Below are positions 5,949 through 45,015 of a stretch of DNA of 49,663 nt, in pieces. Source of the stretch: Chiloscyllium plagiosum (lineage: Eukaryota); NCBI RefSeq assembly GCF_004010195.1, contig NC_057718.1, positions 74,940,117-74,989,779 of the forward strand, in the 5' to 3' direction. The notes under the pieces were generated by a model, which saw only the letters and a program-made list of their open reading frames with translations, was not told where the DNA came from and made no database searches. The position numbers were made by a program, and so were the translations under genes. Position 1 is the first letter of the stretch. Each line of letters begins with the position of its first letter.

Positions 5949-6035
5949 CTTTCCAAATATATGTACATCCTGTCCCTCAGGATTCCCTCCAACAACTTGC
6001 CCACCACTACCGACGTCAGGCTCACTGGTCTATAG

Positions 6036-12289: not shown

Positions 12290-14976
12290 AAATTTTCCAA
12301 GAAGTGTAAAATTAATAAGGCAGTGATAGTAAGGAATTTCAACTTCCCTAACATTAAATGGAGTAGTCGTAGTGTGAAAGATTAAAAGGGAGTGGAATTC
12401 TTAAATGCTTTCAGAAGAGTTTTCTGAATGAAGCTGGATGATGAAGCTGGGCAAATGTTTGAAGTATTAATGGGGGAGCATTTTGCAGACAACAATCATA
12501 ACTCCATTACATTCAAAACCTTTCTGTGAAAGAACAAGAAATCAATATCTAAACTGGGGGAAGGCCAATTTTAATAAGATCAGGTATGATTTAGCCAGAG
12601 AGTACTGGAAGCACATTCAAGAATGAAAAAATGGAGAGGACTTGGCCAAAATGTTCCAATAAAGACAAAGAGTGGGACAAACTAATTCTGTGACTCGCAG
12701 ACATGAAGCGACATATAGCATTGGATAAAGAGAAAGAAAGAAAGCTTATGGCAGCTATCAAGGATTCATAACAACAGAAGACATACAAAAATGAAGAATG
12801 TTAATGGGAAACTTAAAAAGGAAATTAAGATAACAAAAGGGGGCATAAAAGGATCACGGTAGGTGAAATAAAGAAAATATAAAGTTATTTTACAAGGACA
12901 TTAAAGATTAAGCAATTTTATTGTCACATGTACTCAAATGAGTACAGTGAAAAGTTTATAAATCGCCATTTATAGCACCATCTTAGGTACAAGGTACCTA
13001 GGGACAGCTTCTTCAGTTACAACAATAGTTACAGTGTAACAATCTCACCAACACACAGCACCAGCTTAGGTACAGAGTACCTAGGTACAATCCTTAGTTA
13101 CAGAATAGAGAAATGTAGAAAAAAAAAAGGTTACATTAGAGCTATACATAATATATCCATAGGTCAGAAAAACAAGAAGGAGAAAGTGAGGACTGCAGAT
13201 GCTGGAGATCAGAGCTGAAAATGTGTTGCTGGAAAAGCGCAGCAGGTCAGGTAGCATCCAAGGAGCAGGAGAATCGACATTTTGGGCATGAGCCCGAAGA
13301 AGGGCTCATGCCCAAAACGTAGATTCTCCTGCTCCTTGGATGCTGCCTGACCTGCTGCGCTTTTCCAGCAACACATTTTCACCTCAGAAAAACAAGAAGC
13401 AAAGTTAACAAGACAAACATCGCAGCCTCTCTCCAAGTGCTCTCTGCAGCAGACCAGCACAGTACGCCTCCACATGATCTGACTGCTCACAGCTATCACA
13501 CTCTGCCCCGACCGCTGCTGCCACAGTACGCACTGCACCGTTGCCATCATGCTCTGCATGGCATTATCCCCATTTCGCACTGGGCCACTGGTTGCTGGTG
13601 TCCCAGTTTGGGCCACCAACCCCGCTTTGGTGGCTGGGGCTGGGTGTCTGATGGGTAGCAAGTTAAAAGAACAGGCAGAACATAAATAAAAGCAAAGTAG
13701 AACAAAAAAATTAAGGAGGGAAAAGTTATAGTACAATAGAAAGTTAGCCAAAAATAGAAAAAGAGCAAATAAACATTTCTTCAGATAAATAAACAAGAAC
13801 AGAGTTAACAAAGTAAATGTTTGCCCTATAGAAAAATTAGGAAATTAGTAATGGAGGTTAAAGAAATGGCAGATGAATTGAACAGATATCTTATGTTGGT
13901 CTTTACTAGAGAGGAGACCCATAGCATCCTGGAATTAGCCATAAATCAGGGATTGAAAGGGAAGAAGGAGCTCAAGAAAATTCCGATTACCAGGGAAGTA
14001 TTACTGAATAAATTGTTAGAGCTATGAGTTGACAAGTCCCCAGGTCATGACAGATGTCATCCTTGTACCTTTAAAGAAGTAGCTCATGAGAAAGCTGATG
14101 AATTGTTTTTAATTTTCCAGAACTCATTAGTCTTGGAGAACGATTCCTTTAGATTGAAAAATAGCTCATGTAACTCTTTCATTCAAAAAAGGGAGGGAAG
14201 AAGAAAGCAAGAATCTACAGACTAGTTAGTTTAACGTCTGTAATAGGGAACATTTTCAAAGTTATTATTAAAGTTGTTATAAAAGCACTTTGATAAATTC
14301 AAGGTAATCATGCAGTGCCTGATTATCTTTTGTCAAAGATAAATCATGTTTAACTAATATATTGGAGTTCTTTTAATAAATAACTTGTGCTGTAGATAAA
14401 GGGGAACCAGTTAATGTATTGAATTCAGATTTCGAGAAATTATTTAATAAGATGCACATCAAAGATTATTGTGGAAAATAAAAGCTTGTGTTGTAGGTCA
14501 TAACATTTTGAATGACAGAAGATGGCTGGCTAACAGGAAGCAGACAGTAAGAATAGATTAGTCTTTTTCAGGTTGGCAGGATGTCATAAATAGGAACTGG
14601 TGCTGAGCCTGATTTTTTTGCAATTTATATAAATGATTTTGGTGCAGGATCAAAGCAACATTTCCTGGTGTCACAAAAATAGGTAGGAAAGTGAATTGTG
14701 AAGGTGATATAAGTGACCTACAAAGGGATACAGGTGTGAATGGGAAAGATCAGGCAAATGGAATGCAACGTTGGAAAGTGTGAAATTGTCCATTTTGGCA
14801 GAGCAAATTCTTTAAAATTATCTAAATGGTGAGAGGTTATAGAGCATGGAGATGCAGTCAGATCTGGACATGCTTGTGTATGAATTGCAGAGGTTACAGG
14901 CATAATATATAATCAGGAAACTAATATAATGTTATATTTCATTGCAAGGGGAATTGAATGCAAGAATAGGGAGGTT
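12290..14976 (+). mobile_element. Old CR1 LINE ORF2 remnants (APE endonuclease to RT), interrupted by insertions
   Basis: IVRNFNFPNI, EHFADNNHNSITF, KEMADELNRYL, NVTLSFKK, KSCLTNILEFF, WQMECNVGKCEIVHFG-like segments. Confidence 0.75.
13180..13383. mobile_element. Palindromic PLE family-A mini-element
   Basis: ~79-bp inverted arms (~13217-13295 and ~13302-13380). 16-bp TSD TCAGAAAAACAAGAAG at 13164-13179 and 13384-13399. Confidence 0.88.
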
Positions 14977-19967: not shown

Positions 19968-20535
19968 CAATGTGAAGATGCGGACCGGACACATTCTCTC
20001 CAAGCCGCGCTCCCTCCTTATGCCTTCCCAGCCCTGCACCTGAGCTGAGCTCGGGGGAACCACTCCGAAAAACCAGAGAAAACATCGCCAAACGCCAAGA
20101 AACCTGAGCTTAATGGAGCCTGGGCTTCGTCAGCATCTGAGATGAACATTTCAGATGAAGTCTATTTATCCTGAGGTGGCAAAATATTCTTTATCTCGGT
20201 AACCTAAGTAAAACAGAACAGCCCAGACTGAAGAGTTAAGAGGTAACAAGTTAGTGGCAGCAACTGTTCTGAATGAAGGAGTCAGCAATGATGAATTTGA
20301 ACATGAAGAAGTTTAAATCCTAACACAGGTTCCTGGGCTATCCTGCAGCCGCAAAGTCTCATTCAGAAAGACGAGGAGCTGCACACACTAGCGGTTGCAA
20401 ACAGACTTATTCCCGGCCGGTTGGCTGGGAGTGGGCAGGCAGCATTCCCAGCGAAGCGGGACTGACCGCTGGGAGCTGCCCGAGTAATGCACGTGTGGGC
20501 CGAGCGGCCGCTGGTTTGCCTTCCGGGGGAAGAGA

Positions 20536-21666
20536 ATGAACGAGTCCGCCGAGTGCCTGCCGCCAAACAGCGTGCAGCTGCAAGCCAACTCCAAGCATGT
20601 CAACTGCAGCGCCAAAGTGAGTGCTCCCGGAGGGACTGGCATCACAGCCTGGGGGGTGTCGGCCTCGGTTTTCCTGTGCCTCATCACCCTGGCCACGGTG
20701 CTCTCCAATGGGTTTGTCATCGCCACCATTTACCAAGCCCGCAAGCTGCACACTCCCGCCAATATCCTGATCGCCTCGCTGGCTGTGACCGACCTGCTGG
20801 TCTCTATCCTGGTCATGCCCCTCAGTATTGTCTACACTGTCAGCGGCACCTGGAGCCTCGGCCAGGTTGTGTGTGACATCTGGCTGTCCTCCGACATTAC
20901 CTGCTGCACCGCCTCCATCCTCCATCTGTGCGTGATCGCTTTGGACCGATACTGGGCGATCACCGACGCGGTGGGGTACTCGATGAAGCGAACGCCTGAA
21001 AGAGCCGCTGTGATGATAGTCACTGTCTGGATCATCTCCATCTGCATCTCCATCCCGCCTCTGTTCTGGAGGCAAGCCAAAGCCGGAGAGCTCATGCACT
21101 GCGCTGTCAACACGGACCAGCTCTTCTACACCATCTACTCAACTTTCGGCGCCTTCTACATCCCCACGCTGCTGCTGATCGCCCTATACGGGCGGATCTA
21201 CGTGGAGGCCAGGTCCCGGATCCTAAAGCAGGCGCCGAAGCAGAGCGGCAAGCGCCTGACCAAGGCTCAGCTGGTCACCCACTCGCCAGGATCTTCTTCC
21301 CTGTCCTCCGTCAACTCCCGGGTGACCGAGTTACCCAGCGAGACCGCCTCCCCGGTTAACCCCAACCACGTCAAAGTCAAGGTTTCCGACATGTTGCTGG
21401 AAAAGAAGCGGATCTCGGCGGCCCGAGAGAGGAAAGCCACCAAAACCTTAGGGATCATCCTCGGCGCCTTCATCGTGTGTTGGCTTCCGTTCTTTATCAT
21501 CACCCTGGTCTTACCCATCTGCAAGGAGGCGTGCTGGTTCCACCAGGCCATCTTCGACTTCTTTAACTGGCTGGGCTATCTCAATTCCCTCGTCAACCCC
21601 ATCATCTACACCATGTCCAATGAAGACTTTAAGCAGGCTTTCCAGAAACTCATCCGCTGTCGGTGA
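20536..21666 (+). CDS. htr1b: 5-hydroxytryptamine (serotonin) receptor 1B, intronless class A GPCR, 376 aa
   Basis: Seven hydrophobic TM segments with aminergic motifs (LAVTD, D3.32 in SSDITCC, DRY, CWLPFF, NPIIY). ICL3 ([13 protein letters not shown]...GKRLTKAQL...SPGS...[24 protein letters not shown]) and the C-terminus ([16 protein letters not shown]) match 5-HT1B rather than 5-HT1D. N-terminal sequons NES and NCS. Confidence 0.96.
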
Positions 21667-22592: not shown

Positions 22593-22759
22593 GGAATGTT
22601 TATTTTAAGACAAACGAAGCCGGTTAACGCTGCGTTTTTGATAACACTCGGTTTATATTTCTGATAAGCCAGTATTGGTAAGCAATGTTAAAACGAGAAA
22701 GACAGCTCCACAGAAGTTTTCGAAATTGCGAACAAAATCACAGACAATCTCTTCACCAA

Positions 22760-23772
22760 GTTAAAAATCACACAACACCAGGTTATAGTCCAACAGGTTT
22801 ATTTGGAAGCACTAGCTTTGAGAGCTCCGCACCTTCATCAAGATCACTTCAGCGGTCCGGGACATTCGGCCTCTGACCTTTGGCTGACCATCCTCCAGGG
22901 CGGACTTCTGGACAAGCAACACCGCAGAGTGGCCGAGCTGAGAGCAAAGCTCGGTATCCGTGGAATGGCCTCAACCGGAACCCTGGGTTCATGTCACACT
23001 ACAGGTGACCCCACTGTACCATACACACTCTCACACACACATCCACACTCCTACATAGACACACCCAGGCAGACCCTTTGTTATACCCAAGTTCTCTCTC
23101 ATATGCACACACATATACACCATCCCTCCCCCCCCCCCACCCCACTGCACTCACACCCATACACGCACTCTCTCATATGCACATATCCAGTCACACAGAG
23201 ACACACGCAAACACTTAACCAAGCTTACACACGCACACACACATTTACTGTACACACAGTCTATCAGGTGCACTCACACCCGCAGGCACACACTCACATG
23301 CACACTCGCTCTGCCATTCCGTCAGGCACACACATATAGGTTTATGGGGTGAATTTGTTTTTGCAGAATTACATTTTATGTTTCAAAAACTGCATGAAGC
23401 CATGTAAAACATCTGTAAAACTGTGCAGAGGGTTTGTCAGTTTGACTAAACATTGGGACACAGGCAGACTTCACACCTATTGTTAGAAAAGCTGAGCTGT
23501 CTTGAGAATGTAATTCGAAAGAAGTTCTAGGTTTTACATATCAAAGAACAAAAATCAACATATCCCATTCTAAAGGATGAAAGATTTAATGTAAAATTGT
23601 TTACTGTATCACAACTCCATCACACTGGACTCCTTTGGCTATAAATTCTGTGATCATGATCTTATTCACCCCAGCCACCTGATGAAGGAGCGGTACTCTG
23701 AAAGCTAGTGCTTCTAAATAAACCTGTTGGACTATAACCTGGTGTTTAACTTTGTCCAGCCCAGTCCAACAC
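22760..23772 (+). mobile_element. PLE family-B 3' end: inverted terminal copy (22760-22841), GIY-YIG C-terminus, (CA)-rich UTR, hammerhead (23679), terminus
   Basis: HFSGPGHSASDLWLTILQGGLLDKQHRRVAE...GLNR..GFMSHY across frameshifts. CACCTGATGAAGGAGCGGTACTCTGAAAGCTAGTG. Confidence 0.8.
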
Positions 23773-24642
23773 TTAAGTCATCTTTACCAAGTGGCAGATT
23801 TCATTTTCTCTCCAATTCTCTCCAATTAACCCAATCAAATTCAATATGTTTTGCATCCAGAGGCAAATCAATCCTTGAGATAAAATATACCTTGAAGGAT
23901 TACAGAACAAACCAGTGGAAAATATACATATTGAAAAGGTGACACATTATACATTTTATTATAAAGTTATTGCTCCAGCCCTATGGTAAAGTTTTAAAAA
24001 AACTGGCTTATGCGCAATATCCAGAAAATATAAATTCACTCTAAAGTTGTCAGTCAAACATTATCTTTGTACACACTATGTAACAAACTCAAAACTGCAA
24101 AGTTCTGCATGTACACAAGGAACAGGAGCTACTCAATAAATGCTGAGAAAGCAGACTTTAATTGGATTTTTTACTGATCACCATTCATGAACTAAAAGGA
24201 TCAGTTTACAGGTGACAAGTAAATAACAACTAACTGTAACAGTATAGACCAGACATTGAAATTCTTGTTATTATCTCATACGGCCAAACTCTTTCAGTAT
24301 AAATTACAATTAGATGGGGATAAATTGGATAGTTTCTGAAAACAGATGTAGGGATCAGGATGTGTCATTAGTCTGTATCCTTTCAATACAATGTGGCAGT
24401 ACAAACTTCATCCGGCCTGCTCATCTTTACTGTATGCAGCCATCAGAGACTATACCTTTCATTGGATGAATATATCAGCTGGGGTCCCAATATTGCTTTC
24501 TAGTACTCCTTAAATTTAGCCTTCACTGCTTAAAGCAGGTCTGCATGATTCAAATAGAAAGGACATTGTTGCTGCTGGATGTACTGACATCATTTACAGC
24601 TGTTGCTGTGCAAATAATCAATGGCTGTCCATGGGAGTACGT

Positions 24643-24773
24643 AGTTAAAAATCACACAACACCAGGTTATAGTCCAACAGGTTTAATTGGAAGCACACTA
24701 GCTTTCGGAGTGCCGCTCCTTCTTTGATTTTTAACTTTATATATCCCAGTCCAACACCGGCATTTCCAAATCA
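24643..24773. mobile_element. PLE family-B mini-element (truncated fold-back)
   Basis: AGTTAAAAATCACACAAC... and ...TGATTTTTAACTTT inverted ends. TSD TGTCCATGGGAG at 24626-24637 and 24774-24785. Confidence 0.82.
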
Positions 24774-26649
24774 TGTCCATGGGAGAACATGCACACCAAG
24801 GCTTCTTGATGGAATGGATGAAAAGGAGGAACTATGATCTCCATCTGCACAGGGAATAGGGCGCCCTCCTGGTACACACTGAGAAACAATGGGAGCAGAA
24901 AGCCTTGGAAGTCAATGTCAGGGGCTTTGGCCTCCAAAACCTGGAAGCAGTGCTGATCTTACAGAAATTGCCAAGGTCAATGAATACACCTTCGAATACC
25001 ATATATAATCAATTGCACAGTTAGTCCCAGTGCTTGTTTAAATCATGAACATTATTGACCGACCAAGAATGCACATCAATCCAGACTTACAGCTAACATT
25101 TATGTACCTCCTCTCACACTTGTCACACACTCTGTATTATGGCAATCTACCAAATACATAATTCTCAGATGTCAGCTTGTCAATTATAGCAGCCACACTT
25201 AGAGTGCATAACACTGATTGAAACATTACCTTCTCCTTTGCTGGAAAAGATGGTACACAACTAAAAGCAACTACTTACTGGGTAAATGAGCGCCTTTGTA
25301 TTCTGACCCCGATAGAAGATATGATGCTAGCCATTTTGGAATAGCTATTGTTCAGTTCATGGTCAATGTCTGTGTAGAATCCATAAACAATGTTTTCTGA
25401 AAATTCTCCTTATCACATTCTGACAACTACAAGTGATGTAAGAATGAACTCTTATACTTTCACCTCCCCTCAGCATAATCGTACCCTTGCGCCTTTTTCC
25501 TTTCAGATACCCAAGAAATGCCAGCAAGCCAAACAGGAACAGCAAGAAAATAATGGTGATGAGGACACATTTTCAATTGATTCAACATTTACAGTCACCA
25601 GCACTGTGACTAATTTCGAGGATAGTGTAGAGATGGTATGTGGACCTGGTGAGACAATGGACATGGGAGTTTGGTAGGTAATGTTATAATGTGAAGGTCG
25701 AAGCCCTCTGTTAATTAAAACCAAACACCCAGAAAAGCTTGCCTCACCTTGTAATCTGTTAAAATATGATTGAGTGACAGAGAATTCCTAATTTCCACTA
25801 TTTAGAGAAAATAACAATTCATTTTCCTAACTCTAATAGTGAACACTAAACAAAACTATTCACAAATCTAAGATACCCTTTTCTTAAATACTTACTATCA
25901 TGACTCCAACTCTATAAAAATGCTGTTCCAATACAACAATTACTAAACATTACAATAACTTAATCTCAAGACCACTCAGTTTCTGTTTTCTTCAGTGTAT
26001 TCAGCCTTCCATCTGATCTCCCTGGGTCATCATCTTTCTTTTACTGTGAGTGTATTTTACATGAAAAAGATACATTTTGATAAAGAGTTTTCTCTAATTT
26101 CTTTGAGAACAAGATGTTAGATGGGCAGTTAGCTCTCCAGCTCTACGGCAGTTGCTCTGCTGTTCGATGGCAGTTGCTCACCCATTTATTTTCAAAATAC
26201 CGGGTTTATATATCCACTATGACACATTACATTCTTACAATGTTGTTGGTTTTCAAGTGTCAAAACAATAAAATTCAAATTCCATTGGCTTCTGGTATCC
26301 TAGGTATAATTTAAACTAACTGGTTTTAAAATCAAAATGTTGTCAGAACCAAAACCAAAACTCAACTTTTATGTTTCTTTGTGGTTAAGTCATGATGGTC
26401 AAAGTAGTCAGTTAAGGCACATGGAAATATTAGTGAACGCATAATTTAATTCAGGCTATTTGTATCACATTGAAGTAATTCTTCTCAAGCAGTAAAGGGC
26501 TATGCCATACCCTTTTACTATTCATGGCTTCCATACCCTTGTCTCCTTCCTCGGTTCCTCATATTCTTGCTCCTCAGTGTCCTGGCTGTTTAGTGATGAC
26601 AAGAAATGTCTCCCCACCTTGCCTTCAATCACTAGGAAGTTTGATACCT

Positions 26650-26832
26650 TCTCAGCAATGTGATAATCATTAAGTAATTGGTTTTACTGATTTTGGTTAA
26701 AATTAAGTATAAATATTGTACTGGAGTGTGGAAGTATCTCTGCTAGTCTTCTTTGAGTCTTAACATGGAATCTTTTATGTCCACTGAAAGGGCAGACAAG
26801 ACCTCACCTTAACAGTACATGTGAAGGATGAT
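26650..26832 (-). mobile_element. Deu-SINE (SacSINE1-like) fragment
   Basis: CAGCAATGTGATAAT...CATGGAATCTTTTATGTCCAC...GGGCAGAC is the reverse complement of the Deu-domain region. Confidence 0.6.
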
Positions 26833-26884
26833 GCAATCATCCCTTAAAACATCATCTGCTTCATCAGAATTTGTATGCAGTGTG

Positions 26885-27222
26885 AGTAGCACGGTGACTC
26901 AGTGGTTAGCATTACTCAGTGGTTAGCAGGATCCTGGGTTCAACTCTGGTTTCGGGTAACTGACTGTGTGGTAACTGACTTTCCACATTCTCCCTGTATC
27001 TGCATGAGTTTCATCCGGGTGATCCAGTTTCCTCCCACACTCCAAAGATGTGCAGGTTGGATGGATTGGCTGTGCTCAACTGCCCATAGTACCCAATGGT
27101 CTGCATGCTAGGTGGATTAGCCATTGGAATTGCAAAGTTATAGGGTAGGGAAGTTGAGTCTGGGTGGGAAACTGTTCAGATGGGCCAAATGGCCAGCTTC
27201 CACACTGTAGGGATTTTATGAC
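26885..27222 (+). mobile_element. Diverged HE1-like V-SINE
   Basis: GCACGGTGACTCAGTGGTTAGCA head, V-domain, ...CCACACTGTAGGGATT tail. Confidence 0.8.
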
Positions 27223-27845
27223 TCTCATTCCATACAATAGTATGTGCATTGGAATCATGAGCTGTGTGGTCAGAAAATATTCTTTAATAGCTACCTTTTG
27301 GTTTGCTGTGATACTGAAAAATAGTTGGACCAACACTGCTGCAGGATGAAGGCACAATGATCACTACTAACTGGACCTTAATCTGTAGGTTGCACTATCT
27401 ATTATAATGCATTTGCTGGGTGTGGAGGAGTGGTATCCCTTTCAGAACTGATACATGGAAAAGTTGACAACTAATACTCTCAAACAAATGTGCATACAGG
27501 TGGCACCATCCTGCACCATGGTCTGCCTGTCATTAAAGCAGGCGCTCAGATTTGCTCTGCCTACTGTCTCAAGGAAGAAAGAATATTTGGGTTCTCTTTG
27601 AATAGAGTGTATTAGTGAACTCCTTATACAACAGTGCACTGCAATCTGGAAGATATTGCTAATATTCTCGGATCAAATCTGGGAGGAGCAAGAATAATTG
27701 TTTATCACAATCAATAACAATAGAGTCTTTGCTGATGTCTGATGTCACAGTGATGGTACAACTAGCGTCAGAACTTACTGATGACCTCTGTATTGATGAG
27801 CAACCATCTCACACTTTGTTCTTTCTATAGTTTCAGGTGGAAAAC

Positions 27846-29080
27846 CATAAGATATAAGAGCAGAATTTGGCCATTTGACCCATCAAGTCTGCTCCACATA
27901 TTTTTCAACCCCCAATCTCTTGCCTTCTTCCCATAATCCTTGATTCCTTAACTAATCAGAATCTATCTGTCTCTGTCTTAAATATACTCAATTATTTGGC
28001 CTCCACAATTCTTTATAGCAATGTGTTCCACAGATTAACAACCCTCTGGCTGAAGAAATTCCTGCCAAAATCAGTTCTATAGGATCTTCCTTTCACTCTG
28101 AGGCCATGTTCACCATATCCAGGCCTTTTGGCATTCTGTAAAGTTCAAGCACAATCCCTTCATCCATCTAAGCTCCATCGAGTACAGCCCAAAATCTTCA
28201 ACTGTTCCTCATATGACAAGACCTTACTCCCTGGGATCATTCTTATAAACATCCTCTGGACCCCCCTCCAACACCAGAACATCCTTTCTTAGACATGAGG
28301 GCCAAAACTGCTCACAAGATTCCAATTGCGGTCTGATCAGAGCCTTATATAGCGTCAGCAGTACATCTGAGCTCTTGTATTCTATTCCCCTTGAAATGAA
28401 TGCTAACATTGCATTTGCCTTCTGAACAGTAATTGAATCTGCATGTTAATCTTAAGAGAACCATGAACTAAGACTCCCAAGTCCCTTTATGGTTCAGATT
28501 TCCGCAGCCTTTCCCATTTAAAAATAGTTTATGCCTCAACTTTTCTTACCAAAATGCAAAACCTCGCACTTTCGCACACTGTATTCCAACTGTTACGTCT
28601 TTACCCACTATCCTATTCTGTTCAAGTTCTTTTGCTGCCTCCCTCCTTCCTCAACACTGCCTGGCTCTCCACTTATCTTTGTGTCATCGGCAAACTTAGT
28701 AACAATGACCCCAGTTCCTTCATCCAGATCATTGATGTATAACATGAATATGGACCCTTACAGAATTCCACTAGTCAATGGCTGCCATCCTGCAAAAGAC
28801 TCTTTATTCCTTCTCTCTACTCTCTGCTAGTCAAAAGGTAAAAACAATGACTGCAGATGCTGGAAACCAGATTCTGGATTTGTGATGCTGGAAAAGTACA
28901 GCAGTTCAGGAATACTGATGAAGGGCTTTTGCCCGAAATGTCAATTTTACTGCTCCTCGGATGCTGCCTGAACTGCTATGCTTTTCCAGTACCATGAATC
29001 CAGTCTCTGATAGTCAGCCAATTCTCTGTCTATGCCGCTACCTTATCCCTAATGCCTTGGGCTCATTTCTTATTTGGAAA
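27846..29080 (-). mobile_element. CR1 LINE 3' portion
   Basis: KFADDTK; MLAFISRGIEYKSSDVLLTLYKALIRPQLE. Confidence 0.85.
28834..29003 (+). mobile_element. PLE family-A-related fold-back mini-element with hammerhead motif (28915)
   Basis: CTGATGAAGGGCTTTTGCCCGAAATGTC. Inverted arms GCTGGAAAAGTACAGCAGTTCAGG / CCTGAACTGCTATGCTTTTCCAG. TSD TCTCTG[C/A]TAGTCA at 28821-28833 and 29004-29016. Confidence 0.8.
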
Positions 29081-29859
29081 GCTCCTTGTTTCCTGAATAC
29101 CTTGGGTGAATGTGTCCTCCAGCTCTGAGCCCTTCTCCAACCTTCCACTCCCCTCCTCTGTCTCCCTTAAGTTTCCTGACCATTCAGAGCCCTCATGTCC
29201 TGCTTAATGCACTTTCCTCATTCTCTAAATCATGATCTATTCTAAGAGGAGGACCTATCAGTCTGCCTATATCTCAGACGAATTAGTTTGTACAAATGCT
29301 TATAGATTTTTGAAACCCAGAACAACTAATAAAGCACAAATGTGTGTAGAATAGCAACAACCAGAAGGAATCAACCAACAACTAAACAGTAAGTAATTGA
29401 CGATCCATTTAAAAAGCAGTAGATGAAGAGGGATGTTCCTTCCTTCTGTTCACCTCTGTGAGTTTACAACAGGGTGTCATCTAGACTGTTAAGGTGAAAA
29501 ATGGTAGTTTTGGCATCAGATTGACATTGGTGTTTGATGTTGTAAACTATCTGCTCTGCAGTTATTTATTGCACTTTTCCGACACCAGTATCAAGAAAAT
29601 ATCCAGCATGTTTCCTGGCACAGATGTGATTTTGGTACGCCAAAGACATTCAAGGCACCTGAGAAAGCTATGCCACGGAGCCTCAGTTTCTTGCCCTCAG
29701 TCCTTTCATAGCATTAAACATTAGTAAGGGAGAACAATTAGTGACAAAAACATTTTGGGAGTCCTTAGATTATAGTTAAATGATCTGGGAGGTATTCAAA
29801 TGAAAATGATCAAGCCCAGTTGCATTCTACTATTTTTGGTGATACCGAACTTGTTTTGT

Positions 29860-30240
29860 TTTCACTTGCACATCAGAGATGGGGGCATCCTGATAGAAGT
29901 TTACAAAATTGTGAGAGGCATAGAGAAAAAAGTTGGAGTTTTATTCCCAGGGTAGAAATGTCATTCACTAGGGGATTTAGGGTTAAAGTAAAAGGGGAAA
30001 GTTTAAAAGAGATGTGAGAAGCAGGTTTTTTTTACAAAGATTGTGTAAGTGCCTGGAATATGCTGCCAGTGGAGGTACTAGAAGCAGATACAATGGCAAT
30101 GTTTAAGAGGCATCTTGACAGATACATGAATAGGAAGGTAATAGAGTGATATGGACTACGTCAAGGCAAATGGATTTTAATTTAGAAAGAAGTCATACAT
30201 TGGCTCAAGCTTGGTGGGCTAAAGGGCCTGTTGCTGTTCT
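29860..30240 (+). mobile_element. CR1 LINE 3' end fragment
   Basis: LIEVYKIVRGI...AWNMLPVEVLEADTMAMFKRHLDRYM, then the GGGCTAAAGGGCCTGTT tail. Confidence 0.8.
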
Positions 30241-30683
30241 TTGATAGAGGTGTACATGTAATCTTCTGCCATGAGGATAAATTAATCAAAGCATCATGTG
30301 AGGTAATCAGCAATGGAGAGTGTGATTGTGACTAATATAGGTGGAATATTTTTGTCAAGTGATTACAATGTTAGTACTTCTAAAGTAAAAATAATGTGAG
30401 GAACTGGAGGGAAGTCCATAAAGGAGCACGATTTATGGTAAGATGACTTTGCACAGATAAAAATCCCATGGGCGCATTAAAGTCAGCAGATATACAACAA
30501 AAGAAGGATTTGAATTTGAAAAATGGGGATATGCTAATGGAACAATTTTTAAAATGCAAGAATAATTAGTTTCTGGAATAATTAATTGTTGAAATAAAAG
30601 AATAAAACCAACATGAGAAAGATATTTGGAAAAAAGGTAAAGTTTTGGGATCTTCAGAAACTCAAGTAATGAACCCCACACAG

Positions 30684-30884
30684 TTAAAAATCACACAACA
30701 CCAGGTTGGACTATAGTCAACAGGTTTAATTGGAAGCACACTAGCCCTCCACTATTACCTGATGAAGGAGTGTCGCTCCGAAAGCTAGTGTGCTTCCAAT
30801 TAAACCTGTTGGACTATAGTCCAACCTGGTGTTGTGTGATTTTTAACTTTGTACACCCCAGTCCAACACCAGCATCTCCAAATC
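30684..30884. mobile_element. Palindromic PLE family-B mini-element
   Basis: Inverted arms of ~60 bp. 15-bp TSD ATGAACCCCACACAG at 30669-30683 and 30885-30899. Confidence 0.88.
30756..30790 (+). ncRNA. Minimal type-I hammerhead ribozyme motif (family B)
   Basis: TAC-CTGATGA-A-GGAG[TGTCG]CTCC-GAA-AGCT-A-GTG: 3-bp stem I, stem II, palindromic AGCT helix III. Predicted cleavage after 30787. Confidence 0.75.
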
Positions 30885-31599
30885 ATGAACCCCACACAGG
30901 TATCCATAAAGATAATCTGAAGTTTTCAAAAAATGCTGAAAACTACAAAGAGCAATTATGAAGAAAACAAAGCAGAAAATATCAAGACTGCAAAGCCCAG
31001 TAATGCTTTTCATTGGAGACTAACAGACTAAAGAAAGAAATTGCACTATTAAAAATTTTGGTGGAGAAGCATTGTGGAAGCAAAGAGTTTGCTTCAGCCA
31101 GAATTGTTAAATGCTGGAGCTTTATGTCAGAAATAGTATTTGGAAGAGAGAAAGAGAGCTTATACTTAAAATATTTAGGGCTCATGCAGAATTGCTACTT
31201 TCCTAATTGTAAAAGAGTAGATATTAATTACATGAGGTGGATAAAATTCTGTCAAACAGTCTTTTCTCTATTCTTCAACATACTTGTATAACTTATGTCA
31301 TATTTCTGGAGCTCAGGTGTTGCATGTCTAGAAATTCGAAATGCAATGTCTACTTTTGAAATTGAGTTCTAAGACAAGACATCCCAATTTCAAGTTGCAA
31401 GTCTTGATCTTTTGTCATAAAACTATTTGAAACAACATTGCAGGTTGAACCAATATATGGCATAAATGATAGAAAGACAGTTCCTTTTAGAATGGGGTTT
31501 TGTTTGACAAACTTAATGGACTTTTTTGATGAACATATTGACCTGAGAAAGAAACAGTCAGTGGAGAGAGAAATAAAGTTACTGTTTTGAGGCAAGTAT

Positions 31600-32280
31600 G
31601 AGCCTTCCTTAGCAGCGAGTTGGCTCTGTAATTAAAGGATGAAATTAGTATGGTAGTGAGAAATGACTTTAGTTCCGAAGATCAAGATGTGAGTGGAGGT
31701 AAGAAAAAGCAAAGGAAATAAGTCACTTGTGGGAGTAAGTTCTAGGCTTCCTAGTAATAGCTACACTGTAGGACAGAGTATACCGGAAGAAACAAAGAGT
31801 ACTTAAGGAAATAATCACCAATGTTTTCAATCTTAATGTAGACAAATGAATTTGGCAAAGGAAGCCTGGAAGATGATTTCATAGACTGCATTTGGGAGAA
31901 TTTCCAGGAGTAATACATTCTGGAACCATGCAGGGAGCAGGCTGTTTTAGACCTGGCGATGTGTAATAAGACAAGTTTAGTTAATTATCTCATAGTAAAG
32001 GAACAGTAATTATCACATGATAGGATTTCACATTCATTTTGAGACTGAGAAACATGTGTCAAGGGGGAGTGAGTTAAGCTCAAATAAGAGCAATTATGAG
32101 GATATGAAGACAAGAGTTGGCTAAAGTGGATTAGAAAGATAAGTTAAAATAAGCGACGGTAGGGTAGCAGTAAGTGACATTTAAAGAAAAATTCCCTAAC
32201 TCCAAACAAAGATAGATTTCATTTAAAAAAAGATGAGAAGGATGCACATACATTCATAACTATGGAAGTGAAGGTTGGTA
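31600..32280 (+). mobile_element. Old CR1 endonuclease-region remnant
   Basis: LALVIKDEIS-like, ILEPCREQAVLDLAMCN and NYEDM segments, highly decayed. Confidence 0.55.
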
Positions 32281-32744
32281 CCAAGGTTCATGGTGTACCA
32301 CTTTTATTGCATGCAACACCTTCCTCATTTTATCTCACCCACTCCAACTCCCAGACTACTAATCCAGCTGCCATCCGCACTGCTTATTCACTAACTTGGG
32401 GCATTTCATTCCCTTTCCATCTTATCATCCACCTGTACCAACTCTGACAGCTTTGCCAAACACTTTCATTTCACTCAGTCCCTCCCCTTGACTTATTGCA
32501 GGAGAAAATGGCCCACAAAATGGGGAAGACACCCAATGACTTGAGGTGGGGTCCCTGATACTTGGCTCCTCAACTACACTGCGTTCCCTCCCTTGCCCCC
32601 ACCCATGAGGACAGGATCCTAGCCCTGGTCAATGAGGACTAAGCCCACTCAGGCATACATTCCAAACTACCTATGTTCTGGCAACCAAGTAAGAAGGATT
32701 GTCAATGCTGTTCTCTTCTTCCATTATCACCACCGTGTCAAGGT

Positions 32745-32860
32745 GCTGGCGTTGGACTGGGGTGCACAAAGACTTCACCTGATGAAGGAGCAACACTCTG
32801 AAAGCTTTTGATTTCGAACAAACCTGTTGGACTATATCCTGGTGTCATGTGACTTCTGAC
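32745..32860 (+). mobile_element. PLE family-B-related mini-element with hammerhead motif (32779)
   Basis: Inverted stub GTGCTGGCGTTGGACTGGGGTG plus CACCTGATGAAGGAGCAACACTCTGAAAGCTT...AAACCTGTTGGACTAT. Confidence 0.7.
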
Positions 32861-33936
32861 ATTATTATTACTGTGAACTGTGGTCTCTTAATAAGCCTGA
32901 ACTTCTACTCATTCTTCTCAACACATTCTCTTTTTTTTTTGTCTCCAGCAGGAACAAGTGGCATTTGCACGGTCTGAGTAGCCAAGAAAACACCAAGTTT
33001 CCTTCTCCTTATCTGAGCAAAAAGTCACAGTTCCTTCAGAGGAAGCCCCAGCATGCCTACCTCCTGCAATCTTTACTAGCTCAGATAGATACCTCAGTGT
33101 GAGCACTAACATGATTACAGACCTGCTGGTGAGCATGAGACTGCCACATCTCTGTAAACAAACAAGGAAGGAGTGTCCCAGGTCACTGGCACACGGAGAA
33201 TGGCTGGAGACCCAGAACCTACCTCAATCCAGACAGGTGACGTTCCCATCGTGTTGGCAATTAAGAACTTCATAAAAATGCACAAGAAGACACAGGAGCA
33301 GGTGGCAGATTTGTTGGGTGGGTTGTGCAAACTGACACAAAGGTTGCAGGACCATATCTTCACTACTTGGACCTCACTGCCTCTGGCATGCAAGCACTGA
33401 CTGCCTCTACAGACAGATTTGGAGCTGCTATGTAGAGCCAGATCGGGCAGTCTCAGTGTCTGTTGGATATATGCAGATTCACACTTCATTGCTCTAGCCA
33501 TTGCAATACGGGACAAGGGATCTTGTCCTCACTCCAGGTGCTTTTTCATCAAAAGGAGACAGGGTGATGTCTGTAGCCTGTTCAGGAGAATCAAATACTA
33601 TCATTCCCTCTACAGAGGTTTCCTCTTGCAGCATTCAAGTGTTGGCTGGATCTTCCACCTCACCTTGCCTGCCACCCTCACTTCTGTGGAAGTTCAAGCC
33701 AAGGAGGATGCACCTGTCTCTCATGTCTTTGCTGTTTAGCCATGAGATGATCTAACTAAATCTTCAAGGTCAATGGGCTCCACTGTAGGACAGGCTCCCT
33801 TTACCCAGCTGTGGGCCCTTGGGACTGCATCAAGATCTGTTGGCAGTGAAAGGAAGAAGAAGACATGAGGGCATGTCTGAGGACCCATAAGTGGTACAAG
33901 GGCAACTTCATTGTGAATATCAATTTAGAGGCGTCA

Positions 33937-34278
33937 GTGTACAAAGTTAAAAATCACACAACACCAGGTTATAGTGCAACTGGTTTATTTGGAAGCACTA
34001 GCTTTCAGAGGGCTGCTCCTTCATCAGGTGGTTGTGGAGTAGGACCATAAGACACAGAACTTATAGCAAAAGATTACAGTGTCATGCAAGTAAAATGATA
34101 TATTTAACAAACCTCCGTTGTATATCATTTCAGTTGCATGACATTGTAATCTTTTGCTATAGGTTCTCTGTCTCACGGTCCTACTCCACAACCACCTGCA
34201 GAAGGAGCAGCGCTTTGAAAGCGAATGCTTCCAAGTAAACCTGTTGGACTATCACCTGGTGTTGTGTGATTTTTAACT
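33937..34278. mobile_element. ~340-bp palindromic PLE family-B element with hammerhead motifs on both strands
   Basis: Arms ~33945-34102 and ~34121-34278 are reverse complements. Minus-strand core intact (33996-34030); plus-strand copy decayed (~34193-34237). Confidence 0.88.
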
Positions 34279-36922
34279 CTTCTCACATAGGTTCACATCT
34301 CATCAGTTCATCAGACATTCTGAGTGAATATCTGTCAATCTGTGACTATGAGATTGAAAGCGCAGAGCCTAGTCATGCTTAGTGTCATATAATTTTTTTT
34401 GGTCTCATATGTGAACTGAACAGCTCCTGAACAAGGTGCAGACTATTGAATCTTGGAAGGTAGTTGTTACTTTGGCAACTAAATGAATCTTTGCTTGCGT
34501 ATCACAGCCATGAGTGGGATTGATTCCTAATGCTGCACAAGGTGATCCAGAATACTTGCATTCCATGGATTTGCATTCCATGCCCTAGGTTAATGCCTAA
34601 TGTCATACTAGGTTTCTTTCATCTGTATAGTATGGGAGCCCATGAAATGCTGTTGTCCTTTGAAGGATCTCACATTGCTTGAAAATGAAGACTTTTCCCT
34701 TACAGAACAAAACAGTTGTCTGGCCAGTCTGGGTATGGTGGCAGCATTTTCAGCTCCATTGCGCAGTAGTTATTTGCATTATGGTGGATGGAAACCACAA
34801 TCACACTTCATATAGTGAGTCTCAAGTTCAACCTCTCAGCCTTGGTGAACCCCCAAATGTGCAAACTCCCTTCTTCGTAGTCAATCGCATCAGCTTTGAA
34901 CTTCTCCACATTCCTACTCAACCAATCTATTTAACTCACCTCCCCACTTTACTCCCCTCTGATCCAGGCATATCATGTCAACATGCCAGATAACTTTCTT
35001 CAGACTCGAAACATTAACTCTGCTTTTCTCTCTACAGGTACTACCAGACTTGCTGAGTTTCTCCAGCATTTTCTGTTTTTGTTTCAGATTTCCAGCATCT
35101 GCAGTTCCTTCTTTTTATGATAGATATAATTTTGGACTGTACTCCCAAATAAAGCCAGACTGCCGACTGTCAATAACTTCCTTATTCTGGCATTACCCTT
35201 TCCTTTCCATTATTTATTGGCTTGCCCCTTATATATTAAGCTGCCTTCCTTCACAGTTATTATACTTTTCCATCCCATCAAGCTGCTTTTAATCCCCACA
35301 ATTGAGATCCTGGCTTCTCTCACATAGCAGTAGCTCCTGATTATTTCCTACTTGATTTTTATCTCACCAAAGACTGATCATGGCTCACCTTGACTTGGAT
35401 GGACAGACTTGTTTGATAATTGACCGGACTCCTGACTGACCTCAGGGAGATGCACAGAGTGAATTCCCATGACTCCCTGGACTGGCTGCACAAGGCCATT
35501 CATTGCCATCTTCTGGACTTTAAAGGTACAAATCCCCTGACCCTGACCACCCCATTGACTGTGCCCAAGCCCTGGACTGATATCAGACACTACTCTTGAA
35601 TTATTGTGCCAGGACACCCTGACTGAAGGATGTCTACATTGACTTGACTGAATACTGCTTATTAGACAAAGATAAGTAGAAAAGGAAATGTGAAGAGGTG
35701 GAATCGTCCTTGTCCAGTGTGTTGTGAGCAACAGCAAGAAAGATGAGGAAATCCAGCAAGAATGAGAAAATCAGAATCTCAATGTTAAGGATTTTTTTTG
35801 TACAATTTTCCTTTTCAGAAATAAATGGTGACTTCATAAGCTTGCTATTTAATAGAACAGCAGCAAACTTGTTTTTACCAGCACCTTATGAATAAAAACT
35901 CTTGATAAAGGGAGTCAGTTATTGCAGTAAGGGGTGATCATATCTTGGAAGGGTCATTAAATGAGACTTTGTCGGTAGAACTTAGGAATAAAAAGGGACA
36001 ATCACATGGTGAGGAGTGCATTATGGCCTTCAAACAGTCAGTAGGAAATTGAGGAACAGATGTGGAGTCAATTCACTAAGGAATGTAGAAATAATAATAT
36101 GGTAATTATATTAGGGATAATTAATTGAGATAATTGGAACAGGAAGGCTTTAGAGATGACAGGATTCTTGAAGTGCAGATGCATTAATAAGCAATTTTGT
36201 ACTCTAGGATTTCTTAGAGAAAATGAAGGAAGGCATGTAAACTTTTGAACATTATGAAAAGGTTCAGCAACTTGGAAATATGTAGGCTAGGTGAACTAGC
36301 CATGGCAAATGTGGGGTTATGGGGATAAGGTGGGTGACTGGGTTTGGGTGGGATGTTCTTTGGAGGGTCGATATGGATTCAATAGGCCAATTGGCCTCTT
36401 TCTGCAATTCTGGGATTCTAGAGTCTCCATTGTTCTGCTCCCTTTGCACCTGTTATTTGTTTCTCTTTTTTTTTTATCTAATCCTGAATATCCCTTCACA
36501 CCTAAGGTTTTCTGGGCTTGTTACTCCTACTTTTCACCCTAAAGGAAACATATTGGGCCAATATCCCCAGTACCCTTTTGAATGATAGAATTTACCTGCA
36601 AGTAAAATTTCCAAGTCCATTTTGGCCAGGTGCTGCCTATTTTAATAAAATCTGCCTTACCCAATTCAAAATCCTTTTTGCAGGCCATATCATTTTCCTT
36701 TTTTCCATAAAGCAAAAATGTATGGTGTTGCAGTCATTATCACTAAAATGCTTCCCCTCTGTCTCCTTGCATACCCACCAGCATCATTTCTCAGAATGAC
36801 GTCTGGCTTTGCACCATCTCTTGTAGAACCATCTACTGCATGTGATATTTTCAAAGTTCTCCTGCATGCATTTCAGGAAATCTGTCCTGCAAGTTGGACA
36901 CAATAAGGCAATCTAAACCATA

Positions 36923-37312
36923 GCTGAAAAAGTGTTGCTGGAAAAGCGCAGCAGGTCAGGCAGCATCCAGGGAACAGGAGAATCGACGTTTCGGGCATAA
37001 GCCCTTCTTCAGGAATGAGGAAAGTTTGTCCAGCAGGCTAAGATAAAAGGTAGGGAGGAGGGACTTGGGGGAGGGGCGTTGGAAATGTGATAGGTGGAAA
37101 GAGGTCAAGGTGAGGGTGATAGGTCAGACGGGGGTGGGGGCGGAGAGGTCGGGAAGAAGATTGCAGGTTAGGAAGGCAGTGCTGAGTTCGATGGATTTGA
37201 CTGAGACAAGGTGGGGGAAGGGGAAATGAGGAAACTGGTGAAATCCGAGTTCATCCCTTGTGGTTGGACGGTTCCTAGGTGGAAGATAAGGCGCTCTTCC
37301 TCCAACCGTCGT
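36923..37312 (-). mobile_element. Young PLE family-A 3' end (GIY-YIG C-terminus, UTR, intact hammerhead at ~36981-37016), truncated by the gap
   Basis: RRLEEERLIFHLGTVQPQGMNSDF. Reverse complement ATTCCTGAAGAAGGGCTTATGCCCGAAACGTCGATT. Confidence 0.88.
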
Positions 37313-38283
37313 NNNNNNNNNNNNNNNNNNNNNNNNNNNNNNNNNNNNNNNNNNNNNNNNNNNNNNNNNNNNNNNNNNNNNNNNNNNNNNNNNNNNNNNN
37401 NNNNNNNNNNNNNNNNNNNNNNNNNNNNNNNNNNNNNNNNNNNNNNNNNNNNNNNNNNNNNNNNNNNNNNNNNNNNNNNNNNNNNNNNNNNNNNNNNNNN
37501 NNNNNNNNNNNNNNNNNNNNNNNNNNNNNNNNNNNNNNNNNNNNNNNNNNNNNNNNNNNNNNNNNNNNNNNNNNNNNNNNNNNNNNNNNNNNNNNNNNNN
37601 NNNNNNNNNNNNNNNNNNNNNNNNNNNNNNNNNNNNNNNNNNNNNNNNNNNNNNNNNNNNNNNNNNNNNNNNNNNNNNNNNNNNNNNNNNNNNNNNNNNN
37701 NNNNNNNNNNNNNNNNNNNNNNNNNNNNNNNNNNNNNNNNNNNNNNNNNNNNNNNNNNNNNNNNNNNNNNNNNNNNNNNNNNNNNNNNNNNNNNNNNNNN
37801 NNNNNNNNNNNNNNNNNNNNNNNNNNNNNNNNNNNNNNNNNNNNNNNNNNNNNNNNNNNNNNNNNNNNNNNNNNNNNNNNNNNNNNNNNNNNNNNNNNNN
37901 NNNNNNNNNNNNNNNNNNNNNNNNNNNNNNNNNNNNNNNNNNNNNNNNNNNNNNNNNNNNNNNNNNNNNNNNNNNNNNNNNNNNNNNNNNNNNNNNNNNN
38001 NNNNNNNNNNNNNNNNNNNNNNNNNNNNNNNNNNNNNNNNNNNNNNNNNNNNNNNNNNNNNNNNNNNNNNNNNNNNNNNNNNNNNNNNNNNNNNNNNNNN
38101 NNNNNNNNNNNNNNNNNNNNNNNNNNNNNNNNNNNNNNNNNNNNNNNNNNNNNNNNNNNNNNNNNNNNNNNNNNNNNNNNNNNNNNNNNNNNNNNNNNNN
38201 NNNNNNNNNNNNNNNNNNNNNNNNNNNNNNNNNNNNNNNNNNNNNNNNNNNNNNNNNNNNNNNNNNNNNNNNNNNNNNNNNNN
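37313..38283. other. Assembly gap (N run), followed by a (GT)n microsatellite to ~38350
   Basis: Run of n characters. Confidence 0.99.
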
Positions 38284-38519
38284 NGTGTGTGTGTGTGTAT
38301 ACGTGTGTGTGTGAAACAGAAAGAGAGTGGGTGTGTGTGTATGTGTTGTGTGGGGAGGGGATAATTTATTCAACACTCAGAGACCTTTATCTGATCATTG
38401 ACGCACATGGAAGACAGTACCGTTCAGCACTGATGCACTCTGAATTAGCGTGACTCACTACTTGAACCCTGAACGCTGATTTACAATATTGTGGGCAAAA
38501 TGCCTCTTTAGAAAGTTCT

Positions 38520-42233: not shown

Positions 42234-42439
42234 GCTGAAAATGTGTTGCTGGAAAAGCGCAGCAGGTCAGGCAGCATCCAAGGAGCAGGAGAATCGATGT
42301 TTCGGGCATGAGTGTGAAGAAGGGCTCATGCCCGAAACGTCGATTGTCCTGCTCCTTGGATGCTGCCTGACCTGCTGCGCTTTTCCAGCAACACATTTTC
42401 AGCTCTGATCTCCAGCATTTGCAGTCCTCACTTTCTCCT
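42234..42439. mobile_element. Palindromic PLE family-A mini-element
   Basis: ~79-bp inverted arms. 13-bp TSD AGTGGGAAAATAC at 42221-42233 and 42440-42452. Confidence 0.88.
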
Positions 42440-43979: not shown

Positions 43980-45015
43980 TCAGCTGGCTCCTATTTCAAG
44001 GATCACAATTTCCCCTCCCACATGGTCAACAATGCCCTCCAGCACATCTCCTCCACTTCCCACACCTCCATCCTTGGACCCCACCCCTCCAACCACGACA
44101 AGGGTAGTACCTCCTGGTCCTCATCTTCCACCACACTAACCTCCAGATACAATGCATTACTCTTCACCATTTCCACCACCTACAATCAGACCCCATCACC
44201 AGAGATATATTTCCCTCCCCACCCCATCAACATTCTGCAGAGACCATTCTCTCCACGACTCCCTCGTTAGGTCCACACCACCCACCAACCCACCCTCCAC
44301 TCCTGGCCCTTCTCTTTGCCACCACAAGAGGTGTAAAACTTGTGCCCATACTATCCCCCTCACCTCCATCCAAGGCCCCAAAGGATCCCTCCATATCCAT
44401 CAGAGATTTTCCTTCACATCCAAACACCTCATCTACTGTGTCTGTTGCTCTGAATGTGATCCCCTCTAAACTGGGGAGACTGGACACCAACCTACGGAAC
44501 GTTTCAGGGAACATCGCTGGGACACATGCACCAAACAATCCCACCGCTCTGTGGTCGACCATTTCAATTCCCCCTCTCAGTCCGCCAAGGACACATAAGT
44601 CCTGGGCCTCCTCCACCGCCAAATCCTAGCCTCCCAATGCCTGGAGGAAGAACGCCTCATCTTTTGCCTTGGGACCCTCCAAACACTGTAGTCAGAGCAC
44701 AAACAAAAAACATTTATACAGCATCATCCAAATGGTGGATCATGGACGCCTCCAACAAGGCAGACAATTGGGTGCCTCATGATGAAACGTTTATATTGTA
44801 GCCTGATTCAAAGTCAATTTAGCCTCATTCCCACCCTCTTATTTATCTCTCGGCCCCCTTCCCGCACCCCCACCATCGCCACATGCCTGATGAAGGGTTT
44901 ATGCACATAACATCAGTTTTTCTGCTGCTTAGATGCTGCCAGACCTGCTGTTCTTTTCCAGCACCACACCATTCGACTCTGATTCTTCAGCACCTGCAGT
45001 CCTCACTCTCTCCTA
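43980..45015 (+). mobile_element. Neptune-type PLE 3' portion: RT thumb, Cys-rich linker, GIY-YIG, decayed hammerhead (44887), terminus
   Basis: FKDHNFPSHMVNNAL; RDHSLHDSLVRS; CHHKRCKTC; HLIYCVCCSEC..L*TGET...RFREH...HFNS...LEEERLIFCLG. Confidence 0.85.

Follow-up and report, generated by a model that had tools for sequence, protein, structure and literature searches.

Family B insertions in the window

The stretch of DNA analysed here (the window) comprises 49,663 nucleotides of contig NC_057718.1 from the shark Chiloscyllium plagiosum (assembly GCF_004010195.1, positions 74,940,117 to 74,989,779 of the forward strand), and it contains copies of two families of Penelope-like elements (PLEs), designated A and B, both of which carry short hammerhead ribozyme motifs. 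The subject of this report is family B, in which the hammerhead lies directly before a poly(A) signal that appears to be used in RNA. An earlier note, made from the sequence alone, had listed seven family B motifs. All seven were found at their positions in the window, but they belong to five insertions of one PLE family rather than to seven, and an eighth partial copy, the inverted arm of insertion 3, had been overlooked (Table 1).

The five insertions together account for 1,837 bases, or 3.8% of the called bases of the window. Every one of them has an inverted arm, which begins at the same point in four, and the motifs at 22840 (-), 24722 (-), 32779 (+) and 34195 (+) are situated in such arms. 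The inversion junction lies at most 15 nt from the hammerhead or inside it in four of the five insertions, a tail of about 35 nt is present at one end only in four, and clear target-site duplications (12, 12 and 15 bp) flank three. As judged by their variable 5' stop points, the copies are 5'-truncated 3' ends. This layout matches the anatomy of PLE insertions, which show an inverted arm, a one-sided tail of 30-40 bp and a variable target-site duplication (PMC3846280, PMC8557442). The copies present in the window are truncated, mostly decayed and likely inert.

Table 1. Positions of family B features in the window (GIY-YIG, endonuclease domain; pLTR, pseudo-long terminal repeat; UTR, untranslated region)
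Insertion	Feature	Position	Strand	Remarks
1	Left target-site duplication	22750-22761	+	12 bp, 1 mismatch to 23781-23792
1	Inverted pLTR arm	22757-22841	-	Dead hammerhead (C3 and G12 changed); AATAAA on - strand at 22803
1	PLE GIY-YIG endonuclease, C-terminal remnant	22842-23007	+	Frameshifted; 74% identity over 34 aa to Chiloscyllium protein P0125
1	3' UTR of family B	23008-23675	+	CA-rich tract ~23030-23340; 23618-23746 matches both arms at 33960-34263
1	Minimal type I hammerhead	23676-23710	+	Core intact, G10.1-U11.1 wobble; predicted cut after 23707
1	AATAAA poly(A) signal	23717-23722	+	9 nt behind predicted cut
1	Family-wide poly(A) addition site	23734-23737	+	RNA reads from many copies, not tied to insertion 1 itself
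1	GU-rich downstream stretch and shortened tail	23738-23772	+	GU-rich part partly deleted
2	Whole insertion	24638-24785		Inverted arm ~24643-24723 (-) and forward tail
2	Hammerhead	within ~24643-24723	-	Cut off inside 5' core; ATTAAA variant
2	Target-site duplication	24626-24637 and 24774-24785		12 bp
3	Inverted arm	30684-30745	-	Ends in helix III palindrome
3	Canonical family B hammerhead	30756-30790	+	Predicted cut after 30787
3	ATTAAA poly(A) signal variant	30799-30804	+	11 nt behind predicted cut
3	Tail	30850-30887	+	One end only; 15-bp duplication at 30669-30683 and 30885-30899
4	Whole insertion	32740-32863		Tail 32740-32771 (-) and inverted arm (+)
4	Variant hammerhead	32776-32810	+	Pair 2.1-1.1 broken; hexamer AACAAA
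5	First arm	33939-34108	-	Hammerhead 33996-34030, core intact, G10.1-U11.1, AATAAA
5	Second arm	34109-34280	+	Head-to-head, 86% identical; dead hammerhead ~34193-34227, hexamer AGTAAA

Both full tails, at 24766-24775 and 30878-30887 (+), end in ATG and overlap the target-site duplication by 2-3 nt; the terminal ATG may be the start codon of an open reading frame (ORF) or a priming microhomology. A contig from run X15 (record 9, organism C) aligned to 22815-23009 crosses the inversion junction of insertion 1 with five differences and one gap, so that organism C contains either insertion 1 or another copy sharing its junction.

The hammerhead motif of family B

A descriptor of the minimal hammerhead (CUGANGA, helix II of at least 4 bp, GAAA, palindromic helix III, UH, and helix I of at least 2 bp) matched the window six times, namely family B at 23679 (+), 30759 (+) and 34027 (-) and family A at 5877 (+), 6059 (+) and 37012 (-). 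Three hundred dinucleotide shuffles of the window gave a mean of 0.003 matches and never more than one. Three of the seven family B copies pass the full descriptor, and the copy at 32779 keeps the core and has lost pair 2.1-1.1. Damage is seen in six of the seven: the core is changed in 22840 and 34195, 24722 is cut off inside the core, and C11.1 is replaced by T in 23679, 32779 and 34027, presumably through CpG decay, leaving a G10.1-U11.1 wobble. The only fully intact, canonical family B hammerhead in the window is therefore 30759, for which the predicted cleavage after 30787 was numbered correctly. With respect to the core pattern proposed earlier, in which CTC[C/T] closes helix II, the pattern is indeed present, but a canonical G10.1-C11.1 pair occurs in 30759 alone among the window copies; it is G-C also in L001, one of two metagenome relatives described below, and in the consensus of aligned DNA contigs. 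Similarly, the proposed helix II (GGAG/CTCC) is conserved, but in the family majority it probably comprises 5 bp with a 3-nt loop, as judged by the loose-end consensus of the DNA contigs and by L001. All four core-intact copies have an extra A between positions 9 and 10.1. The palindrome at 15.1-16.1 is AGCU in family B and L001 and ACGU in family A, and it allows no helix III in a monomer.

The compensatory changes that had been claimed between the two families are borne out, since four pairs are altered on both sides from A to B: 10.3-11.3 from G-C to A-U, 10.4-11.4 from C-G to G-C, 15.2-16.2 from C-G to G-C, and 2.2-1.2 from U-A to A-U. It should be kept in mind that two lineages yield one comparison per pair, so these changes do not amount to a covariation statistic. 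An Rfam scan of the window at E<=1 gave no hammerhead match and returned microRNA (miRNA) hairpin matches on family A palindromes only; because the motif forms no helix III as a monomer, this result is no evidence against a hammerhead.

Minimal hammerhead ribozymes (min-HHRs) of PLEs were described by Cervera and De la Pena in 2014 (PMC4209133). They share with family B the type I arrangement, the CUGANGA/GAAA core, the extra base between 9 and 10.1, the G10.1-C11.1 pair, the palindromic 15.2-16.2 and the short helix I. Several covarying families occur per genome, and the motifs are mostly solo or in opposite-strand pairs, like those of family B. In its sequence, family B shows all the features of the min-HHRs, and its motif is a PLE minimal type I hammerhead, ordinary for these elements. 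In Fig. S3 of the same paper, read by eye, the AGCU form is found in five of 56 rows (a turtle, two rotifers and two Schistosoma), and one row, Marsupenaeus, combines the CUA triplet with CAC/GUG as helix I; its PLE is Neptune-like according to PMC8557442. Differences from family B are that no shark is among the 56 rows and that the combination of AGCU with H17 = A is missing.

These comparisons also bear on the earlier argument that the same structure in two PLE lineages within one window speaks for a selected RNA function. The lineages are indeed separate and four pairs have changed on both sides, but the conclusion was overstated, since several covarying min-HHR families per genome had already been described (PMC4209133) and a pair of lineages within a single window adds nothing to that. 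Any such selection worked on the active element rather than on the window copies, six of which are damaged.

A poly(A) site behind the hammerhead

For a family-wide view, two contig sets and two raw RNA runs were aligned to 22815-23800 at 82% likeness. RNA run X17, a single-cell poly(A) library of which 12,955,460 records were read, gave 2,984 aligned reads, including 2,049 first mates. Among the loose-end rows listed, runs of A begin behind 23734 in 674 cases and behind 23737 in 878, together 1,552 of the 2,984 reads. Counted from the predicted cut, these poly(A) starts follow at a distance of 27-30 nt, and counted from AATAAA at 12-15 nt. The median length of the loose ends was 68-69, which presumably represents oligo-dT plus barcode. 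First-mate depth in the poly(A) bin was 2,166 on the - strand versus 310 on the + strand, indicating that the RNA is sense to the hammerhead, and sense reads also reach as far as 350 nt upstream into the 3' UTR of the element itself.

The DNA contigs continue past 23734-23737 into GU-rich sequence with no A tract, and a templated A tract at this position is absent from all seven window copies. Internal priming by oligo-dT was rejected, since no A-rich DNA follows 23734; visual inspection for a splice site close to the motif likewise led to the rejection of that possibility. The site has, in this one sample, the canonical layout of a hexamer 10-30 nt ahead of an untemplated A tail and a GU-rich stretch behind. 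Five of the seven window copies contain AATAAA or ATTAAA, which are the two canonical poly(A) signals of elephant shark (PMC3466250), the others having AACAAA and AGTAAA. L001 has AATAAA 18 nt behind its predicted cut, in a flank that is otherwise unalignable. In Fig. S3 of PMC4209133, as counted by eye, AAUAAA occurs within ~15 nt behind the cut in nine of the 56 rows and AUUAAA in two more, compared with a rough expectation of ~3 from A-rich flanks, an excess that is suggestive only. The parts of that paper covered mark the 3' flank as 'AU rich' and mention no poly(A) signal. No report of a poly(A) signal beside PLE hammerheads was found in the literature searched, most subscription papers being outside its reach. 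The hammerhead itself is of a known kind; its proximity to a poly(A) site used in one RNA sample is an addition to the known picture. The value of the finding lies in the position, with the hammerhead directly before a used poly(A) site and well before the insertions end, and it suggests that transcripts obtain poly(A) sites from a highly abundant repeat of sharks.

Upstream, the loose ends of the X17 reads fall into three consensus types, one of which matches the sequence upstream of the 30759 copy; this suggests either several subfamilies or a few host loci.

Related loci and conservation of the motif

When metagenome contigs were scanned with a pattern of the motif, two loci were obtained, L001 and L002, which belong to one family; the same scan of viral contigs and genome contigs gave no match. 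A search for related loci returned at most three weak matches, all confined to the GIY-YIG stretch. By blastn, L001 and L002 have only the 35-nt motif in common with the window, identical at 32 of 35 positions to the 23679 copy. Compared with the 34027 copy, L001 is identical at 31 of 35 positions in the motif, 26 of 70 upstream and 19 of 55 downstream (ungapped counts, with copies 34195 and 22838 left out of the comparison). In both loci helix I is extended to 5 bp. L001 contains an inverted reverse transcriptase (RT) piece at 1-394 (-), just below the cut-off, and L002 an open endonuclease frame at 48-581 (+). The latter encodes, upstream of the motif, a PLE endonuclease with a C-x4-C-x2-C linker and 52-53% identity to the Mustelus protein P0004. 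The motif is kept well above the flanks and the protein, and a near-identical motif behind a related endonuclease, with unalignable flanks, favours selection on the RNA.

The DNA contigs cover 30 of the 30 bins of 22815-23800, with a depth that peaks over the motif; the summed depths are not copy numbers. Their loose-end consensus retains CUGAUGA and a 5-bp helix II, and none of the variants in the rows listed (40 of 180) falls in the catalytic core. A consensus lacking the CUGAUGA/GAAA core, which the earlier note had regarded as fatal to the hammerhead, is hence not what the contigs give: the family majority keeps CUGAUGA and helix II. One contig bridges the end of the endonuclease and the 3' UTR across the CA tract.

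Endonuclease and lineage

In insertion 1 the endonuclease remnant, the 3' UTR and the motif are contiguous, and the same order is seen in L002. A direct homologue search with the frameshifted endonuclease peptide of the window was empty, and the link was made through L002. The nearest named relatives of the retroelement proteins in the window are proteins of Chiloscyllium, Rhincodon and Mustelus. An endonuclease tree was built from 53 rows and 142 columns, consisting of 51 proteins hand-picked from ~190 and two pieces from the window. The family B remnant fills 24% of the columns. It clusters with proteins of Chiloscyllium (100/97) as part of a clade from sharks (99/89) that L002 joins weakly (84/83), and the family A endonuclease falls in a separate clade (100/95). 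Family B is accordingly a PLE lineage distinct from family A, as had been proposed.

No family B RT is present in the window. The relatives P0004, P0002 and P0010 of the family B endonuclease have a C-x4-C-x2-C linker before GIY-YIG, and the window remnant begins downstream of this linker. P0004 scored 21.7 bits against the Pfam GIY-YIG model, just below the cut-off of 22.6, and P0010 (881 aa; 66% identity to P0004 over linker and endonuclease) contains RVT_1 above the cut-off. Endonuclease-containing (EN+) PLEs of the Neptune and Nematis types have a Zn-finger-like linker (CX2-5CxxC) between RT and GIY-YIG, similar to that of the family B relatives, and share the inverted arm, tail and duplications with the family B insertions (PMC8557442). 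A linker in the A and B lineages or their relatives would fit Neptune and Nematis alike, and the tree, which contains no reference PLEs, does not settle the clade. Nor did it resolve the position of the turtle PLE with AGCU and a following AAUAAA in Fig. S3, which was expected as sister of family B.

Coding remnants of family A lie at 44317-44682 (+), 576-1491 (-), 7100-7520 and 37168-37300, and comprise RT and an endonuclease with the C-x4-C-x2-C linker. Among the database proteins, the host-gene isoforms P0007, P0047 and P0025 of shark and turtle (XRCC5, FAM210B and TANGO2) end in or match PLE endonuclease, and these are either exonised repeats or annotation artefacts.

Folding and predicted activity

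The intact 30759 motif in place is predicted to pair with the inverted arm of its insertion in a hairpin of ~60 bp (-112 kcal/mol, z -19), covering helix III, the cut site and the hexamer; this arm is not part of the stretch 30745-30800 that the earlier note had named for a cleavage assay. According to the predictions, L001 has the motif closest to an active monomer fold. CUA is a weaker cleavage triplet than GUC. Known min-HHRs cleave weakly and as multimers (PMC4209133), and the hammerhead of an Anolis PLE cuts only with protein, its cleavage being dispensable for insertion in vitro (PMC11167929). Taken with the less favourable predictions given below, the modelled folds fit a weak, assisted cleavage activity.

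Interpretation and alternative explanations

We consider it probable that family B represents the 3'-end module of a PLE, in which a min-HHR, predicted to fold only as a dimer or with the help of protein and likely under selection in the active element, is followed by a poly(A) signal used in one RNA run and then by the tail at which reverse transcription likely starts. A transcript through this module would have two alternative fates. It could be polyadenylated just behind the hammerhead and become an mRNA end, or it could be read through ~70 nt further into the tail and serve as the template for transposition. In insertion 3, the poly(A) position corresponds to 30816-30819 and the insertion ends at 30887, about 70 nt away. 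For the Anolis element, internal starts of RT have been placed at the tail (PMC11167929). Since the insertions end at the tail, the polyadenylated RNA would lack the RT start, and judging from these ends the template is likely the read-through RNA. The hammerhead would probably cut slowly, and only when two copies are paired through AGCU or when the element's protein is bound; protein-assisted cleavage is reported for other PLEs (PMC11167929). A cut at the predicted site would strip the poly(A) signal and the tail from the mRNA form.

An extension of this model, which we regard as speculative and on balance unlikely, is that hammerhead and poly(A) signal form one conserved 3'-end switch, in which cleavage, set off by the protein of the element or by another transcript, removes the tail from the mRNA and sorts RNA for translation from read-through template RNA. 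If this were true, many dispersed copies would hand a cleavable poly(A) cassette to shark host transcripts, and the switch would give a concrete answer to the purpose of PLE hammerheads, the role of which is stated as unclear (PMC8557442).

A number of observations weigh against the proposed 3'-end module. With regard to cleavage, X17 depth just upstream of the predicted cut (1,767) is similar to the value of 2,166 behind it, and read ends do not accumulate at the cut site in this run, which indicates that most of the polyadenylated RNAs seen are uncut, although a 30-nt cut product would probably be missed by the alignment. The hammerhead was not the predicted minimum-energy fold in any of the five family B copies of the window that were folded, and the double-hammerhead dimer was predicted 13-18 kcal/mol above the cofold minimum in the four core-intact copies. 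The dispensability of cleavage for insertion of the Anolis PLE in vitro (PMC11167929) points in the same direction. With regard to the poly(A) site, the evidence comes from one sample (X18 gave 0 aligned reads and so no test), the A-run counts leave 1,240 loose-end rows outside, and 7 of the 2,984 X17 reads are at least 99% alike to the window, the source organism, tied to the best-matching DNA sets by its label only, not being shown to be the window's species. A canonical hexamer is missing in two of the seven family B copies, and none of the seven family A copies has one within 35 nt, where the background rate is 3.6%. With regard to conservation, the likeness of L001 and L002 to the window is partly built in, because 26 of the 32 positions were set by the search pattern; moreover, the loci represent one family rather than two independent cases. 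Finally, none of the aligned contigs spans endonuclease to pLTR in one piece.

Among other explanations, it is possible, though we doubt it, that a small number of host genes, which happen to have a family B copy at their end, are the source of the poly(A) reads, with the hexamer an incidental A-rich stretch that has no role for the element. The ~120 poly(A) reads per million X17 records are what a handful of genes could supply, the three upstream consensus types have agreements of 0.64-0.84, AACAAA replaces the signal in one copy of the window, a hexamer is missing from family A, and poly(A) sites donated by transposable elements are known (PMC2553571). On the other hand, five of the seven window copies carry a canonical signal, L001 has kept AATAAA in a flank that cannot be aligned, against the background of 3.6% per 35 nt, and the sense reads cover the element's 3' UTR. 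The motif might also owe its conservation chiefly to a role in folding or in binding the RT or endonuclease of the element, and cut rarely or never in cells. Helix II, which is free to covary, is identical in the shark copies and L001, X17 read ends do not pile up at the cut, catalytic mutants of the Anolis PLE insert normally with no RNA-seq reads ending at the cut (PMC11167929), and PMC4209133 leaves room for functions other than cleavage. We nevertheless find this rather improbable, as all core letters and the self-complementary helix III are kept in A, B and L001 while the stems change on both sides, and as the Anolis motif does cut once protein is added (PMC11167929).

Two further readings concern the nature of the copies themselves. 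Four of the five insertions have no coding sequence, depth at the motif exceeds that of most of the upstream region by a factor of hundreds, and non-autonomous pLTR derivatives have been described (bioRxiv 10.64898/2026.07.22.740005), all of which could be expected if family B were a stand-alone retrozyme or an element like a short interspersed nuclear element (SINE) that merely resembles PLE ends. Such an origin appears quite improbable in view of the uninterrupted order of endonuclease, 3' UTR and motif in insertion 1, found independently in L002, the lack of a tandem array in the window, and the differing 5' stops, as 5' truncation predicts. By analogy with mammalian Clec2, a + strand copy could have been recruited by the HTR1B-like gene upstream to provide a cleavable 3' end; the ORF of this gene ends at 21666 (+), in sense orientation and 2 kb ahead of the motif at 23679 with its AATAAA. 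This seems highly improbable: canonical hexamers at 22348 and 22587 come first, C11.1 is damaged in the 23679 copy, which is also preceded by a complementary arm, and only seven X17 reads are 99% alike.

Comparison with other hammerhead elements

The Poseidon PLE of Anolis carolinensis, PAc (Frangieh et al. 2024, PMC11167929), resembles family B in its pLTR hammerhead and one-sided tail, the latter explained in PAc by two internal RT start sites, and in the lack of RNA reads ending at the cut site. It differs in belonging to another clade, and no passage on polyadenylation was found in the text covered. The hammerhead in the 3' UTR of mammalian Clec2 genes (PMC6765202) cuts upstream of the poly(A) signal, so that cleavage removes the signal, and the placement in family B is the same. 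However, the Clec2 ribozyme is a discontinuous, self-sufficient host-gene ribozyme with a demonstrated effect on expression, whereas that of family B is mobile, of the dimer type and known here from sequence. Non-LTR retrozymes (LTR, long terminal repeat) have a type I hammerhead related to PLE pLTRs and are reported in the one chondrichthyan sampled (bioRxiv 10.64898/2026.07.22.740005). They form tandem arrays with at least two consecutive intact motifs, unlike the family B copies, which are dispersed or head-to-head.

Surroundings of the insertions

An intact serotonin receptor ORF at 20488-21666 (+), with 5-HT1B as its best match (E 1e-175), ends 1.1 kb before insertion 1, and the canonical hexamers at 22348 and 22587 could terminate its mRNA. 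An assembly gap of ~1 kb of N at about 37310-38290 adjoins a family A copy and a CA/GT tract. Family A also forms head-to-head palindromes at 5800-5950, 13200-13390 and 42240-42410, which correspond to the miRNA-like Rfam hairpins, below gathering scores, and are possible sources of double-stranded RNA.

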